From: Octopus vulgaris
Taxonomy: Eukaryota
Direction of reading: 5' to 3'
Assembly: GCA_951406725.2 (NCBI GenBank)
Contig: OX597820.1
Location: 78,616,001 to 78,680,000 of the forward strand
DNA length: 64,000 nucleotides
In this document: positions 17,478-43,222 of the stretch, in pieces
Layout: each line of letters opens with the position of its first letter
How positions within the stretch are numbered: position 1 is the stretch's first letter
Position numbers and translations under genes: made by a program
Notes under the pieces: model-generated
Told to the model about the DNA's origin: nothing
The model's database searches: none
What the model saw: only the letters and a program-made list of their open reading frames with translations

Positions 17478-20231
<2,754 letters not shown>

Positions 20232-20233
20232 AT

Positions 20234-20635
<402 letters not shown>

Positions 20636-20788: not shown

Positions 20789-20868
20789 CTTAAATGTTGA
20801 AGTGAATCGAACGGCTTTAGTGTGTTTCTTAAATGGCTTATAAACACCTTCCACGCTGCAATTGTTTT

Positions 20869-20918
<50 letters not shown>

Positions 20919-20929
20919 CACGCACAGTG

Positions 20930-21715
20930 AGCTTAAATATAGATAAGCCTGCACAGTGAGCTTCCAGTGAGGTGGAACCCCGTCCTGTTGAAAAATGAAG
21001 TCTTCCTGTTCATTTGCAATGAGTTCATCCATTACCCAGTTCTGAAGCATTTGCAGATAAACATCACCGGTTACATTGCCCTCAAAGAAAAACGGGCCAT
21101 GAAGAAGCTTCTTGGAGATTGCGCAAAACACTTTCACTTTCGGTGCGTTCCTCTCATTCTCAACTGTGGCATGGGGATTTTCTTCGCCCCAAATTCGAAC
21201 ATTAATGCTTATTGACTTTGCCATTCGTATGAAATGTGGCCTCATCACTGAAAACAAGACGTTCCTTGAACTCGGCTTCTTCAACTTTCTCTTGCATATC
21301 AACACAGAATTGTGTGCACTTTCGCTTGTCGTCTGCTGTTATGGCCTGAACGAGCTGCAGCTTGTTGGCTTTCATTAATAAGCGTTTCCTCAGGGCGCGC
21401 CAAATTGTCACTGGAGGAATCTGGGTTTCCAGACTTCTTCTTATGGACTTCTTGCGGTTTCGGAAGAGTCTTTGGCGAACCCGCTCAACCGTTTCTTCCG
21501 ATGTTAGTGGTCATCCAAATCCTTTTGCCCTCCAACACATAAAACACCTTTTCTCTTCCAGTGAATGCCATTTCTATACCTAAAAAGATAAACATATCAA
21601 ACATTAGACATAAAATTTTGACCTGTTTCTACACATGTTAAAATTTGAAGTCATTTGAACAAGAACTGGTCAAGTTATTAAATTGTGAAATATCAAATTT
21701 TTTAAAACTCCTTGA
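20930..21715 (-). mobile_element. Tc1/mariner-superfamily transposase relic (rosa/DD41D-like), 3'-truncated
   Basis: VFSDEATFHTNGKVNKH, then after a frameshift NVRIWGEENPH...KVKVFCAIS...GPFFFE...YLQML...FIFQQDGVPPHW. The third catalytic residue is lost, so the subfamily is tentative. Confidence 0.85.
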
Positions 21716-25293: not shown

Positions 25294-25713
25294 ATTATTG
25301 TTATTATTGCCTGGAGATGTACTACAGTGTCAGCTATTCACTACCAGTGGACTAAGGTAACACCTCTTATTTTTCGAACACCTTCCGGAGTATTCGTGCG
25401 GTTCCAAGCAATGCTGTTTTCTGCAAGTGTTCCGCCCTTATTGCAGCCCCTATTTGTTCCACGTACTTCTCGAGATTTTTGCTCACTGTTCCCAGTGTTC
25501 CAATTATTGGTACTACTACCAACTTTTTCATCGACCACAACTGCTTAACCTCCCAAGCTAATCTGTCATATCTATCGACTTTTCTTTCTTCCTTATCGCA
25601 TACCTTGTTTTCAGTTGGGCATACTATATCTATGATCCAGCATAGTTTGCTTTCTTTCTCAATTAAGACTATATCTGGCTTCCTATTCTCTACCTCATGG
25701 TCGCACTGAATCA
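25294..25713 (-). mobile_element. R4/Dong-like non-LTR retrotransposon 3' end (restriction-like endonuclease)
   Basis: IQCDHEVENRKPDIVLIEK...IIDIVCP...EERKVDRY...VVPIIGTLG...LQKTALLGTARILRKV is a PD-(D/E)xK RLE. A short taa-type tail follows. Confidence 0.9.
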
Positions 25714-25779
<66 letters not shown>

Positions 25780-25799
25780 CATCATTATTATTATTATTA
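25714..25799. repeat. (TTA/TAA)n microsatellite
   Basis: Read directly from the sequence. Confidence 0.95.
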
Positions 25800-26215
25800 C
25801 TGAGTGAGAGAGCAGTGTATGCCATCAAAGTGATACTGGGGTAAAATATACGAAGCCCAGTATACCCATCATGACTACCCGTCTGATAAGGGTACACTAG
25901 GCACATGCATCACAACCATATGTGCGCGACATGGTGATCTCATATCAAGATAAACAGAACATGACCTTGCAGGTGAGGCCCAGTTAGAATTTTCTTCTGG
26001 TCGAGTAACCCATCCCGCTCAAAAGGTCCCTGAATAAGGGTTGTTTAAGGATGTTGAACGAAACACTCATGATTCCAAAGGTGAATTATCCAAACCCCAA
26101 AGAATCTCTCTCAACACATGGCTATGATGCTCCCCCACTACTTCTGCTCGTGATCAGAGATGCACATAGCGTCAGCCACTAAGAGACATGCTCAACTGCT
26201 TAAGGTCAAACAAAT
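25800..26215 (-). mobile_element. 3' region of a (TAA)n-tailed retroelement
   Basis: Ends ...ctctctcactcag-(taa)n on the minus strand. The same terminus recurs truncated at 27783-27827, again next to (tta)n. Confidence 0.65.
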
Positions 26216-27063: not shown

Positions 27064-27103
<40 letters not shown>

Positions 27104-27850
27104 CTATGAGGATATTTAAACTTCTTGTAGGGATAGGTTTATCCTGGTGTAATATATTATATTTTGAAGATGCATTTCTTCAATAAATATATTATAAAAC
27201 ATCAAATATTATAAATAAGATTGAAAATGCAAATGTTAAAGAATTACGCTCTGCAGTTAGTTGTTTCTTGTTGCAAACACAGTGTTTTAATCTTCATTCC
27301 AATTTTTTCCTTCTTCTCCTAATGTGATATGTTGTAATGAAATGGTTTACATTTAGATTTTAGTAAAAGATTACAGAAATTCTCTGATGCAACATACTTT
27401 TCGTGATTGAAACAAAATTTGGCACTTGTATTTAGCTCTTACATAGCATCAGAGTGGTATGGGGAAAAAATTATATAGTCCCTTGTTTTTCTGTCTTTAA
27501 CTTTTGGAAACTTGTTATAAAGATTCTATCTATCTGTCTGTATATTGATGTACAAACATTAGAAAGAGTGCTCAATTCATGTAGTAGAATGTATTTTATA
27601 CACTTAGAAGTGATCATTCACACTGTCATTACTCCGAGTTTCCTGTTATGTGCACTTGTTCAAATGAACACTCAGCTTTGAATGAATGTGTGTGTGGTTG
27701 TGTGAGTGGGAGTTATAATTAAAATTATTTAGTTTTATTCATTGCTAAAATGTTTACATTGATGGAGTACATCAGGAAAAAATATTATTATTATTGAGTG
27801 AGAGACCAGTGCATGCCATCAAAGTGATGGGAAATGAAATTGAGACTTAT

Positions 27851-27933
27851 GTGGTTTGAGCTTGGTAGTATTCAACTAGATGTTGTAGATCGACTCCTTT
27901 CTTTGTGCGGATTTCAATGACTTTTATTAGATA
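27851..27933 (-). pseudogene. ASAP: ASAP-family ArfGAP BAR-domain exon with a mutated splice donor
   Basis: Acceptor ttcttcttctgtttgttcgcag. The 83-nt exon encodes YLIKVIEIRTKKGVDLQHLVEYYQAQT (vertebrate ASAP1, recalled: YLIKVNEIKTKKGVDLLQNLIKYYHAQ). The donor position reads ATAAGT instead of GTAAGT, and read-through meets TAA at once. Confidence 0.9.
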
Positions 27934-28093
27934 CTGCGAACAAACAGAAGAAGAAATTAGACAACTTTAAACGTTCATCTGCTAAAATAAGTCTTTTTAA
28001 AAAAAAAGTCACTACATTACTGACCACCAGTAGATCATATCTTCATATAGTTAATGTATATTTAAGATTTAAGTTTGCAAATGAGAGACTAAC

Positions 28094-29152
28094 AGAAAGT
28101 GTGGGAAGCTAGCAATGCCAAAATCACAGAAAGTATGGAAAACTAGCAATGCAAAAATCACAACGTATGGAAAGCTAGCAATGCCAAAATCACAAAGTAT
28201 GGAAAGCTAGCAATGGCAAAATCACAGAAAGTATGGAAAACTAGCAATGCAAAAATCACAACGTATGGAAAGCTAGCAATGCCAAAATCACAAAGTATGG
28301 AAAGCTAGCAATGGCAAAATCACAAAGTATGGAAAGCTAGCATTGCCAAAATCACAAAGTATGGAAAGATAGCAATGGCAAAATCACAAAGTATGGAAAG
28401 CTAGCAATGGCAAAATCACAGAAAGTATCGAAAACTAGCAATGCCAAAATCACAAAGTATGGAAAACTAGCAGTGCCAAAATCACAAAGTATGGAAAGCT
28501 AGCAGTGCCAAAATCACGAAGTATGGAAACCTAGCAGTGCCAAAATCACAAGGTATGGAAACCTAGCAGTGCCAAAATCACAAAGTATGGAAAGCTAGCA
28601 GTGCCAAAATCACAAAGTATGGAAACCTAGCAGTGACAAAATCACAAAGTATGGAAAGCTAGCAGTGCCAAAATCATAAAGTATGGAAACCTAGCAGTGA
28701 CAAAATCACAAAGTATGGAAACCTGGCAGTGCCAAAATCACAAAGTATGGAAACCTAGCAATGCCAAAATCACAAAGTATGGAAACCTAGCAATGCCAAA
28801 ATCACAAAGTATGGAAAGCTAGCAGTGCCAAAATCATAAAGTATGGAAACCTAGCAGTGACAAAATCACAAAGTATGGAAACCTGGCCGTGCCAAAATCA
28901 CAAAGTATGGAAACCTAGCAATGCCAAAATCACAAAGTATGGAAACCTAGCAATGCCAAAATCACAAAGTATGGAAAGCTAGCAATGCCAAAATCACAAA
29001 GTATGGAAAGCTAGCAGTGCCAAAATCACAAAGTATGGAAAGCTAGCAGTGTCAAAATCACAAAGTATGGAAAGCTAGCAGTGCCAAAATCACAAAGTAT
29101 GGAGAGCTAGCAATGCCAAAATCACATAGTATGGAAAGCTAGCAATGCCAAA
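28094..29152 (+). repeat. 32-bp minisatellite, about 33 copies
   Basis: Unit aaagtatggaaa(g/c)ctagca(a/g)tgccaaaatcac, head to tail with no spacers. Confidence 0.97.
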
Positions 29153-29211
29153 GATTTATGTGGATGCTTATGATATCTGATATGGATAGAATAGGCTACA
29201 CAAATACAACT

Positions 29212-29437
29212 TTAACTCTTGAACATTCAGATTTCTTTGTCAAATGTAAACCTTATTTATTCACATTGTTTTGAATTAATCATGCATCTTCTCATAGCTT
29301 CACAATTTCTATGATGTGGTTGTTTATATTTAGAATGACCTTGTAGTGTAGGTGTGAGACATTGGATCTGCTCAGTTTTAACATAAAACCAGGAGAATAT
29401 CTGGACCAGAAATGGCTGGATTAAATGCTAGAGTTAA
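29212..29437. mobile_element. TTAA-bounded MITE (piggyBac-like ends)
   Basis: Imperfect inverted termini ttaactcttgaacatt ... aatgctagagttaa. Confidence 0.5.
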
Positions 29438-29871
29438 GTCCACTTTCACTATCAAAGCAGGGATTAGCCTAGGGGTCCCATGACTAAATGTTTTTTGGGG
29501 ACTATCTTTTATCCTTTTCTTGTTTCAGTCATTGGACTGTGGTCATCCTGGGGTTCTCTCTTTAAGCGTTTATTACATATACATTAACAATAAGTAGATA
29601 TCAGTTATTAGTGATCAGTTACATAGTGACCTGGTAAACTTGAAATGCCAGTAGTGATGGTCATTATAATAGAGGACAGCTGATCTGTTGATGTCAGTGT
29701 TGGATGGTCAAGAAATATAATGACCAGCTGAATGGTAAAAATACAATTTTCATTCTGATATTTTGTTCATTATATTGTCAATTTTGCAGTGGTAGTAAAG
29801 GTCAGACGAATAAATATTACTAAAGCATTGCTTTACAGTCAGATGCCCGTCCTGTCATTAAAGATACTTAC

Positions 29872-29925
29872 TTCACATGCTTGTAACTGAAACATTTTTC
29901 TTTCTTTTTCCATCTCTTCTGCAAT
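29872..29925 (-). pseudogene. ASAP: ASAP-family ArfGAP BAR-domain exon with intact splice sites
   Basis: Acceptor ttttttctttgttgcag. The 54-nt phase-0 exon encodes IAEEMEKERKMFQLQACE (ASAP1, recalled: IAEEMEKERRLFQLQMCE). Donor GTAAGT. It splices in frame to the exon starting at 27933. Confidence 0.92.
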
Positions 29926-30229
29926 CTGCAACAAAGAAAAAAAGGAATTCTTCTGATTTTCATTTATGCATTACACTTTACCATTTCTCACTCTCTTTCT
30001 CCGTAATTGTGTGTGCAATTACACACACACGCACAAAACATGTATGTATGAATGGATGAATGGATGGATGATTGGATGAATGAGTGAAAGAATGAATAAA
30101 ATGTCAATTGCCTTAGTGTTTAGCATGTCTGCACAATTTATGGTGTGTCTGGATTATGATTCCAGTAGGCACTGAAAAACATTTTTGTCCAACCCATGCA
30201 AGCATGGAACATGATTATATGCATACATG

Positions 30230-30267
<38 letters not shown>

Positions 30268-30268
30268 T

Positions 30269-30429
30269 ACGACTTCTTTCAGTTTCCATCTACCAAATCC
30301 ACTCACAAGGCTTTGGTTGGCCCAAGGCTATAGTAGAAGACACTTGCCCATGGTGCCACGCAATGGAACTGAACCCAGAACCATGTGGTTCGTAAGCAAG
30401 CTACTTACGACACAGCCACTCCTACGCCT
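30269..30429 (-). mobile_element. SINE family A head only
   Basis: Reverse complement of the head (...cacagccactcctacgcct), abutting (TA)n. The 3' half is absent. Confidence 0.9.
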
Positions 30430-30674: not shown

Positions 30675-30792
30675 TTATGTTTACAATTCACCCAACACTA
30701 GACCCCCATGTAATGCATTCCCTACAAAGGTCGAGATCACATCACCGAAGAGCATTGTGACACAATTTCTTCACTGCAAATGGTCCTGCACT
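30675..30792 (+). mobile_element. CR1/L2-like ORF2 C-terminal scrap
   Basis: [10 protein letters not shown]...RSHH...[11 protein letters not shown] aligns with FKIHPRLGP...HNFFSSTGSAL at 4960-5070. Confidence 0.6.
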
Positions 30793-30824
30793 TTATATAT
30801 ATATATATAAATATATATAAAGAT

Positions 30825-30897
<73 letters not shown>

Positions 30898-30900
<3 letters not shown>

Positions 30901-31730
30901 ACCTAGCGAAGGAGGAGAAGGGAAAGATGATGGTTTCATGATCCCTAGATTGAAAAGTTCTGAGGATCCATGTACACATTTTACGGCAACATCGACTTTT
31001 TGGGGGGATGAGCATACTCCAGCTAAAGTTGCTCTCCACAGTTATACCTATGTCTCTGATTTTATCCGACGGTTCAAGTAGGTCTCCCGAAGTTAGTGTA
31101 TATGGTTGTTTGGGTGTCCCCTCTTTTCCAAAGTAGATAAGCTGAAATTTTTCCTCGTTCAACTGCATATTGTTTTTTTGTGCCCACTGAGTTACTGCGC
31201 ATAGGTCCGATTGAAGCATCGTTCGAGCATATGCTCTCTTAATGACTTTTTGGTGCTTAGAGTCATCTGCGAATATTTTAATGATGCTATGTTCAAAGGA
31301 ATCTGCAGTGTCATTGATATAGACAATAAAAACTGGACAGTACCCTGCAGGACTCCACTGATTACTTTTTGCTGGTCCTGAGAGGATGCCATCAACCACA
31401 ACATGCTGGGTCCTGTTTGTTAGGAAATACCTAATTCATGGAAGTAGCTTTCCACCGACTTCAGCGTTGGATAGCTTCCTTAACAGTATATTGTGGTCAA
31501 CTCTGTCAAAGGCCTTACTGAAACCAAGGTACATGACATACGCATGCGTTGGAGCCCTCACTTAGTGCATTTAAGATGTCATCAAAGTGATGGAGGAGCT
31601 GTGTTAGGCAGTCTCTCCTACCACGAGAGCCATGCTGGTTGCAATTGGAGATGATTTTGTTCTAGGAAGGCTATTATTTTTGATCTCAACACTCTCTCAA
31701 ATACTTTGATGATATGTGAGGTGAGTGAGA
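30898..31730 (-). mobile_element. CR1/L2-like reverse transcriptase fragment
   Basis: FSKAFDRVDH (about 31495-31522), SGVLQGTV, FIVYIND, KIFADDSK, WAQKNNMQLNEEKFQ and IRDIGI, with frameshifts. Confidence 0.88.
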
Positions 31731-42549: not shown

Positions 42550-43222
42550 CATTATTCAAGATTTATTTCAAGATTTCTTGCCAATAGAGAAAGAACCGGT
42601 TTCTAACCTAGATCCAAAGCTCTGGAATTTCAACATCAACTACAGGGTATTTTTGTTTGTATGTATGTATGTACGTGCAGAGTTGCATGTTTTATGTATG
42701 TATTCTCATGCATATACCTGCATATCTAGACATGCTCATTTATATTTAAATGATAAACTCTTGGAAAGTTTTACAGATTTTTACAGTGCCAGTGATGGAT
42801 TGGATCTGTAACCTTCGAATTAGCTTTCTCCTTTCTGGTTTTGAGAAGCCTAATTTTTCAAGATTGGTATTTAGGCAGTGTGTTACATATCTCAGGTTTC
42901 CAGTAATTACAGGTATAAACCTGAACTTGTAATCTGGATAGAGTAACTGCAGATTTCTCAACAGTTCACCATAGGTGCTCTTTTTTTCACTGATCTTCAG
43001 CATTACGTTAACATCTGCTAGGCAGGTAATTTCCATAACTGTGCACAGTTTCTCTTCTCTATCCCAACTCATTATATCAGGTCTGTTGTGCTTACATTTT
43101 ATTGAGGTCTTCAGTGGGATATTCTACCAGTACTCCTTTTTATTATGAGTGGCTACGGTTTCTACCATATTGTGTATTCTTATTTCTTTGCCTTCGGGAT
43201 TATCCGTCCGACGGATTTCATG
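42550..43222 (-). mobile_element. RLE-type (R2/R4/NeSL-like) non-LTR retrotransposon 3' end
   Basis: KCKHNRPDIMSWDREEKLCTVMEITC..DVN...KISEKKSTY..L...FIPVITG, followed by a 3' UTR and short repeated tail. Confidence 0.85.

Follow-up and report, generated by a model that had tools for sequence, protein, structure and literature searches.

The two ASAP exons in the window, the 64-kb stretch of DNA analysed here (G000:C7:78616001-78680000 of a 2.8-Gb assembly), are carried by a tail-less member of a 26-unit family that was likely spread by a LINE reverse transcriptase acting on host read-through RNA (probability about 0.7). The same piece is present in at least 26 units at no fewer than 22 loci on 11 contigs, the parent gene excluded. 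The window fragment itself is a decaying copy, dead cargo, and the interest sits in the family: a gene fragment can contain an intron without being a DNA-level duplicate, and this bears on the classing of orphan exons.

The window copy and its parent gene

Exon A (29872..29925, minus strand, 54 nt, IAEEMEKERKMFQLQACE) has a polypyrimidine-CAG acceptor and a GTAAGT donor and is identical to exon A of the parent. Exon B (27851..27933, minus strand, 83 nt) has a CAG acceptor and is followed by ATAAGT; the intron between the exons measures 1,938 nt, and read-through past exon B meets a stop at once. The exons, acceptors, intron, ATAAGT and read-through stop had been described in a sequence-only reading and were reproduced, as was its assignment of the exons to the BAR domain of an ASAP protein. 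The annotated Octopus ASAP2-like protein, with BAR-PH-ArfGAP-ANK-SH3, matched the 64-kb window at exons A and B only (E 1.5e-5 and 2e-9; the remaining three of five rows had E>2), in agreement with the earlier failure to find neighbouring ASAP exons. A PDB search with exon B alone returned chance matches only.

An ASAP protein search of the assembly located the parental locus on C4. It is colinear over 21 exon matches covering amino acids 66-888, the SH3 exon lying beyond the reach of the matches, and the parent exon is 100% identical to the annotated ASAP2-like protein carrying all five domains. In the parent, the residues in question read VNE and LLQ and the donor is GT. In contigs of runs that we guessed to be RNA (contigs only, unstranded, low depth), exon B was joined to the next parent exon in two of four runs and to exon A in one, and the Leu was present in three of the four. 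The A-B junction that had been suggested as a check was seen with the Leu, as spliced by the parent gene. The intact, spliced ASAP gene is the C4 locus, and the damaged allele or alternative terminal exon that had been entertained as less likely options give way to it.

The suspected N>I exchange in VNE and the loss of one Leu (3 bp) are confirmed in the assembly by comparison with the parent. Both changes, together with the GT>AT exchange in the donor of exon B (27849..27850, minus strand; a transition at a CpG), are private to the window copy among the copies aligned over those sites. Contigs of four DNA runs show parent-type letters, and the window's own alleles were not seen in them; because such contigs merge several copies, absence cannot be read from them, and confirmation of the three private changes is limited to the assembly. 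Such missing alleles would fit a functional ASAP gene in the window, disguised by an assembly error or by a non-canonical AT-AC intron, to which we give practically no credence: a complete colinear parent lies on C4, the window contains no further ASAP exon, and its ASAP homology ends ~115 bp past exon B, where it runs into a sequence termed X. Both the flanking exons and the intact donor expected of a functional gene are lacking. A U2-type AT-AC intron for the ATAAGT donor was ruled out by the GT of the parent, and a literature search on the idea found nothing. The features of a processed pseudogene are likewise absent, as the intron is retained in the copies spanning both exons and the tail is a LINE end, antisense.

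What stands of the first interpretation is a duplicated, decaying fragment, for which there is a colinear parent; its further claim of a single, DNA-level duplication without retroposition is not supported, given 26 units at 22 loci with a LINE-type polarity. No bridging contig was found, among those listed, for the far junction of the window copy. The dispersed copies can also mislead the mapping of ASAP reads, the calling of variants and the design of primers.

A three-part unit and its copies

The unit was traced to three donors: a LINE 3' tail with microsatellite in a talin intron on C28, the ASAP gene on C4, and X on C13. The ASAP part comprises 2.3 kb of intron and exons in reverse, the X part reaches up to 1.8 kb, and the donor joins carry 3-4 nt of microhomology. 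In gene orientation, most copies open with (CAT)n, after which come a ~330-bp repeat end in reverse complement, a TA/TG microsatellite and the ASAP segment. This repeat end is a LINE 3' UTR: its genomic copies follow an ORF with an RVT_1 match (E 2e-31). The tail-donor LINE has a non-LTR reverse transcriptase ORF upstream of the tail and a microsatellite 3' end; it is probably RTE-type (RTE clade), judged by C-terminal motifs and by the type of tail. The LINE ORF at L095:3163-4815 additionally gave a PHD finger match just after or within the reverse transcriptase region (E 7e-5, slightly below the cut-off).

A search of the 2.8 Gb for the exact tail-microsatellite junction motif gave 15 sites: 14 family copies and one locus on C28, where it lies in sense direction in a short talin intron. 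The C28 locus agrees with the family in its tail, in the layout of its microsatellite and in the 20-mer that follows, with native intron beyond. The copies switch from C28 to ASAP at a CATG microhomology within an old tail remnant, at a point where C28 stays native intron. C28 is most probably the donor; a daughter truncated at exactly that base would be much less likely. All four copies extending past the ASAP homology enter X (C13:57.51 Mb) through an AAA microhomology, and none of these four contains the native ASAP continuation. The C28 layout and the common ASAP-to-X switch together show a tripartite master, in which three parts from separate loci are directly fused with the LINE 3' end last. 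Divergences of the three parts are unequal (1.3%, 3.6-5.2% and 5.5-9.2%). Since X is 1.3% from its donor and the ASAP part at least 3.6%, formation of the founder may have taken two steps. The X donor locus yielded no identifiable gene; a stop-interrupted coding-like stretch (L057:250-900, minus strand) with no homologue found lies 770 bp from the X junction.

The window copy retains the C28 20-mer, the ASAP segment and 511 bp of X, and has the TA tract of a local repeat in place of the tail. Its left insertion junction is formed by the TA tail of a high-copy host repeat (30270..30428, minus strand), which we assume to be SINE-like; this repeat is outside the mobile unit, and the flank is common to no other copy. 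A (TA)n tract at 30230..30269 joins the copy to this flank, and the LINE tail of 18 other loci is missing there. The adjoining 20-nt piece from the talin-intron donor (30210..30229, minus strand; G000:C28:~13513146) is found in 22 of 22 units with this end and is absent from the parent ASAP intron, which proves that the window copy descends from the three-part master. An early tail-less ancestor was considered for the window copy and ruled out by this C28-derived 20-mer and by its place in the star of the family tree.

The intron-containing ASAP segment (27733..30213, minus strand; parent at ~G000:C4:161356042-161358320) is 4.4% from the parent over the first 1 kb. It starts with a short old LINE-tail remnant of the ASAP intron (30187..30213, minus strand), which has the CATG microhomology to the C28 piece; a small hairpin kept in this remnant was not significant against shuffles (z -1.7 to 0.5). 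A 32-bp minisatellite of ~33 units (28096..29152) stems from the parent intron, varies in copy number and is inverted in several copies. Segment X (27225..27735, minus strand; from G000:C13:57511630 onward) is joined to the ASAP segment by the 3-nt AAA microhomology. At the far junction a piece of an old inverted-repeat repeat (27090..27229, minus strand), probably target flank, meets X with a CATTT microhomology.

At 27783-27827 the ASAP intron holds 45 bp from the end of a different repeat, which is extremely abundant and has an (AAT)n tail; L025 ends there. Decayed transposon fragments occupy 18247-20355, 20838-21510, 25367-25909, 30737-31435 and 42746-43123 of the window and include one RT/zf-RVT frame by Pfam. 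Other frames presumably resemble a mariner transposase, an R4/Dong-type endonuclease and a CR1-type reverse transcriptase, with no Pfam match for those scanned. An ad hoc Pfam screen of 18 frames from the window and two 10-kb flanks revealed no host gene and one retroelement match.

Strong genome matches, including parent and window, numbered 22 for the exon A region and 12 for the exon B region, and the unit start gave 23. Units are 1.5-7 kb long and low-copy. Over the first kb, the window copy differs by 2.2-4.0% from the 20 other aligned copies, and each of the 21 differs from the parent by 3.6-6.4%; copies are closer to one another than to the parent. The tree, which leaves out four exon-B-only loci and one partial array unit, is star-like and supports the C1 array and one trio only (15 of 19 inner branches open). 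This array consists of five tandem units with a ~7-kb period (G000:C1:20018000-20047000; L043-L046), amplified together with their flank after insertion, and a serpin exon lies ~23 kb off. In the four DNA runs, summed contig depth at exon B was ~2-3 times that of X, which agrees with the assembly copy ratio and is not itself a copy number.

Across 21 copies exon A has undergone three substitution events, where 12 is the mean for 54 nt; 2.4% of sliding windows are as low, and this low change may be chance. Combined with the occurrence of one copy in RNA-type contigs, it could point to selective retention of the copies as antisense ASAP regulators. We regard this as highly unlikely, because exon B accumulates changes normally across copies, microsatellite windows inflate the mean, and deletions affect the acceptor of exon A or its first bases in two copies.

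Polarity, host genes and the probable route of spread

At 18 of the 22 loci one end of the unit lies exactly at the LINE (GAT)n tail, with ~2-9 repeat units. No more than 4 nt at this end are in common with the donor flank, which is never carried, and comparison of tail-side flanks gave four matches in 190 pairs (three microsatellite, one a 68% repeat). The tails of 14 loci are of the master type; in one trio and one single copy a different tail is attached at the microsatellite. Tails were exchanged twice in the family. The tail-less loci are the window copy and three others. Two of the tail-less copies (L026:5084 and L027:4981; C24) break off at an identical position of exon B and have in common a foreign stretch of ~55 bp, followed by minisatellite; their wider flanks differ.

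The far ends range from +467 to beyond +4000, several with inverted arrays of the 32-bp minisatellite. Long alternating inverted arrays are found in L009 (480-3800), L021 (1728-3923; positions from unit start) and L028, and look like the product of repeated fold-back synthesis. Added flank occurs only at the far end, where three groups have extra sequence in common: L011 as source of L012/L013 (~3.7 kb), L018 as source of L023 (~300 bp), and L009 with L024 (145 bp). The unique part of the flank in L018/L023 and L009/L024 was at no third locus in a genome search; for the L011 group the flank is a repeat, which makes the search for a third source uninformative. A tail end without carried flank (18 of 22, the window copy excepted), far ends that vary from copy to copy, and upstream flank that can be followed back to its source are the marks of LINE-mobilised 5' transduction. 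This polarity leaves a DNA-level origin without retroposition unsupported for the family.

Dispersed, near-identical, intron-containing copies are typical of Pack-TIR elements as PMC8277862 portrays them, and the far end of the window copy adjoins a piece of an inverted-repeat element. Capture and movement by a DNA transposon (Pack-TIR or Helitron) is nevertheless extremely improbable: none of 19 copies has a terminal inverted repeat of >7 nt, one of 19 has a CTRR end, the fixed end is a LINE tail, and the inverted-repeat piece is private to the window copy.

Flank matches of at least 9 nt were detected in 7 of 19 copies, all inside TA/TAA tracts, and no clean target-site duplication (TSD) was found. 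The test is weak, since 18 native tails are also mostly without a TSD (flagged in five, three of them in TA tracts). Short copies of the unit are rare, though the 18 native tails measured mostly 85-514 bp. Tail-only daughters cannot be counted with a diagnostic 25-mer of the tail, since the genome matches it exactly at 169 places.

All six copies with host exons in or beside them are in host sense orientation. The copy with the longest X fills most of a MYCBP2 intron between consecutive PHR-domain exons, and the MYCBP2 pre-mRNA would cross it in the order X, reversed ASAP, tail. The other five are in an intron of a DUF719 gene, behind TRM5, at an RGS/SNX25-like gene, at an EF-hand gene and behind a DHDH gene (the RGS and EF-hand matches being below Pfam cut-offs). 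Source or candidate-source copies are among them: L018 in the DUF719-gene intron, L011 7 kb behind TRM5 and L009 behind the RGS/SNX25-like exons. Judged by sequence, each of these putative sources would lie on the same strand as a host transcription unit. An opposite-strand gene is 15-23 kb away at two loci (tubulin, serpin), and the remaining loci, the window included, showed no host gene in mostly 10-kb views.

Variants of the MYCBP2 copy were present in RNA-type contigs of two studies (depth 3-8, strand not given), and one RNA-type contig crosses its X-ASAP join (depth 2.9). No daughter carries this copy's own flank, so its status as master is unproven. Splice-like ends were found in none of eight listed deletions, and there was no significant skew indicative of ADAR editing (28 T>C versus 21 A>G).

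These observations are consistent with the following route. The C28, C4 and C13 donor loci were fused at 3-4-nt microhomologies. Synthesis of cDNA primed on the talin-intron LINE tail may have switched template into the ASAP intron at the old tail remnant and a second time into X, with RNA or DNA as templates. Copies positioned in sense in or behind host genes would then ride host pre-mRNA ending in the LINE tail, and target-primed reverse transcription from that tail would give daughters with a fixed tail end and with far ends that are truncated, inverted or extended by upstream flank. In host read-through RNA the ASAP sequence is antisense, so the exons would not be spliced out and the intron would be kept; a retained intron thus does not exclude an RNA step. 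The window copy would have lost its tail at the TA tract, by internal priming or later deletion, before undergoing neutral mutation.

Real findings speak against an RNA route: neither a clean TSD nor traces of splicing or editing were found, short copies are few, the parts diverge unequally, and copies cluster on C13 (4 of 22 loci, P ~0.004, post hoc), which plain trans-retroposition does not predict. The C13 loci lie at 46-65 Mb, three of them within 7 Mb of the X donor. DNA-templated copying without an RNA step, in the form of gene conversion or of microhomology-mediated repair synthesis and with priming in existing LINE tails or in TA tracts, would account for the microhomologies at every resolved join, the clustering near the X donor, the few short copies, the four tail-less loci including the window, and the intact intron. 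It leaves unexplained why 18 loci end at the LINE terminus, 14 with a master-type tail and not a local one, why flank is gained at the far end only, and why source copies are host-sense. We consider it unlikely as the general explanation; no rival is stronger where the founding joins or the window copy by itself are concerned. Those joins look like double template switches, whose marks DNA-templated repair would equally leave. In the case of the window copy, internal priming, a later TA-TA deletion and DNA-templated insertion are not distinguishable.

Relation to known retroelements

Spread by reverse transcription of read-through RNA, with a fixed tail and carried flank, fits the family pattern of SVA 5' transductions as outlined in PMC12593883. 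Like the SVA_F1-type groups of that account, the unit would be a non-autonomous element that uses an upstream host promoter and carries flank, with offspring that become new sources and transductions that accumulate in series. In contrast to SVA as presented there, it has no SINE body, and its element-derived part is only ~330 bp of LINE 3' UTR; the cargo is an antisense gene fragment with intron, the LINE is non-L1 with a (GAT)n tail, and TSDs are not resolved.

The direct fusion of three loci with the LINE 3' end last recalls the tripartite LINE chimeras that are known from Magnaporthe and mammals and are explained there by double template switching (PMC2104539), and the founding joins can be likened to two-transcript L1 insertions (PMC11702581). 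The chimeras in the former source are individual transcript fusions, the fungal one with a 14-bp direct repeat, whereas the unit described here was amplified to 22 loci, holds intronic antisense sequence and swapped tails twice. The RAP1GDS1/L1PA2 case, as summarized in bioRxiv 10.1101/2025.02.02.635956, is similar in its intronic source on a host promoter, several insertions and minority of antisense cargo. Unlike mRNA/LINE-1 chimeras, which in the available description join spliced first exons to near-full-length L1, our unit has unspliced antisense cargo and a bare tail.

A transcribed octopus RTE has been described (RTE-2_OV; PMC9115989), which we do not equate with the tail-donor LINE. 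Some LINEs stringently recognise their own 3' tail (PMC3747384), and, as outlined for LINE-tailed SINEs (PMC3747384, PMC5786205), a common LINE 3' tail would license mobilisation and tails are exchangeable. Tail-less copies can arise, as in the tailless retropseudogenes of PMC5322556. In contrast to LINE-tailed SINEs as these sources present them, no small-RNA head is apparent in the unit, which is 1.5-7 kb long and low-copy.

All ingredients are already known from mammals or fungi. Exon 9 of CFTR with flanking intron was reportedly dispersed to several loci (Rozmahel, 1997), as was the trans-mobilised genomic DNA of Ejima and Yang (2003), both said to be due to retrotransposons in a human L1 context. 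Here, in contrast, the donor of each part and serial sources are traced, and in an invertebrate. In open-access text, neither cephalopods nor RTE elements yielded an example of a tripartite unit that was amplified and carries antisense, intron-containing exons. With three donors, likely sources and tail exchanges traceable in one genome, the birth and spread of a non-autonomous retroelement become directly testable.

We tentatively raise the possibility that a promoter-less, headless retroelement family has been caught at birth, in which a bare LINE tail makes any host pre-mRNA a substrate and a self-renewing engine scatters intron-flanked exons. If so, copies with ASAP exons along host splicing would be purged, and the survivors would consequently face the direction that makes them new sources. 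Tails would be swapped and flank would snowball, which may explain many orphan exons in LINE-tail-saturated cephalopod genomes. LINE tails occurred about once per 8 kb (83 matches in 664 kb of DNA, a density enriched by locus choice), and at such abundance the same route could supply splice-ready exons for shuffling.
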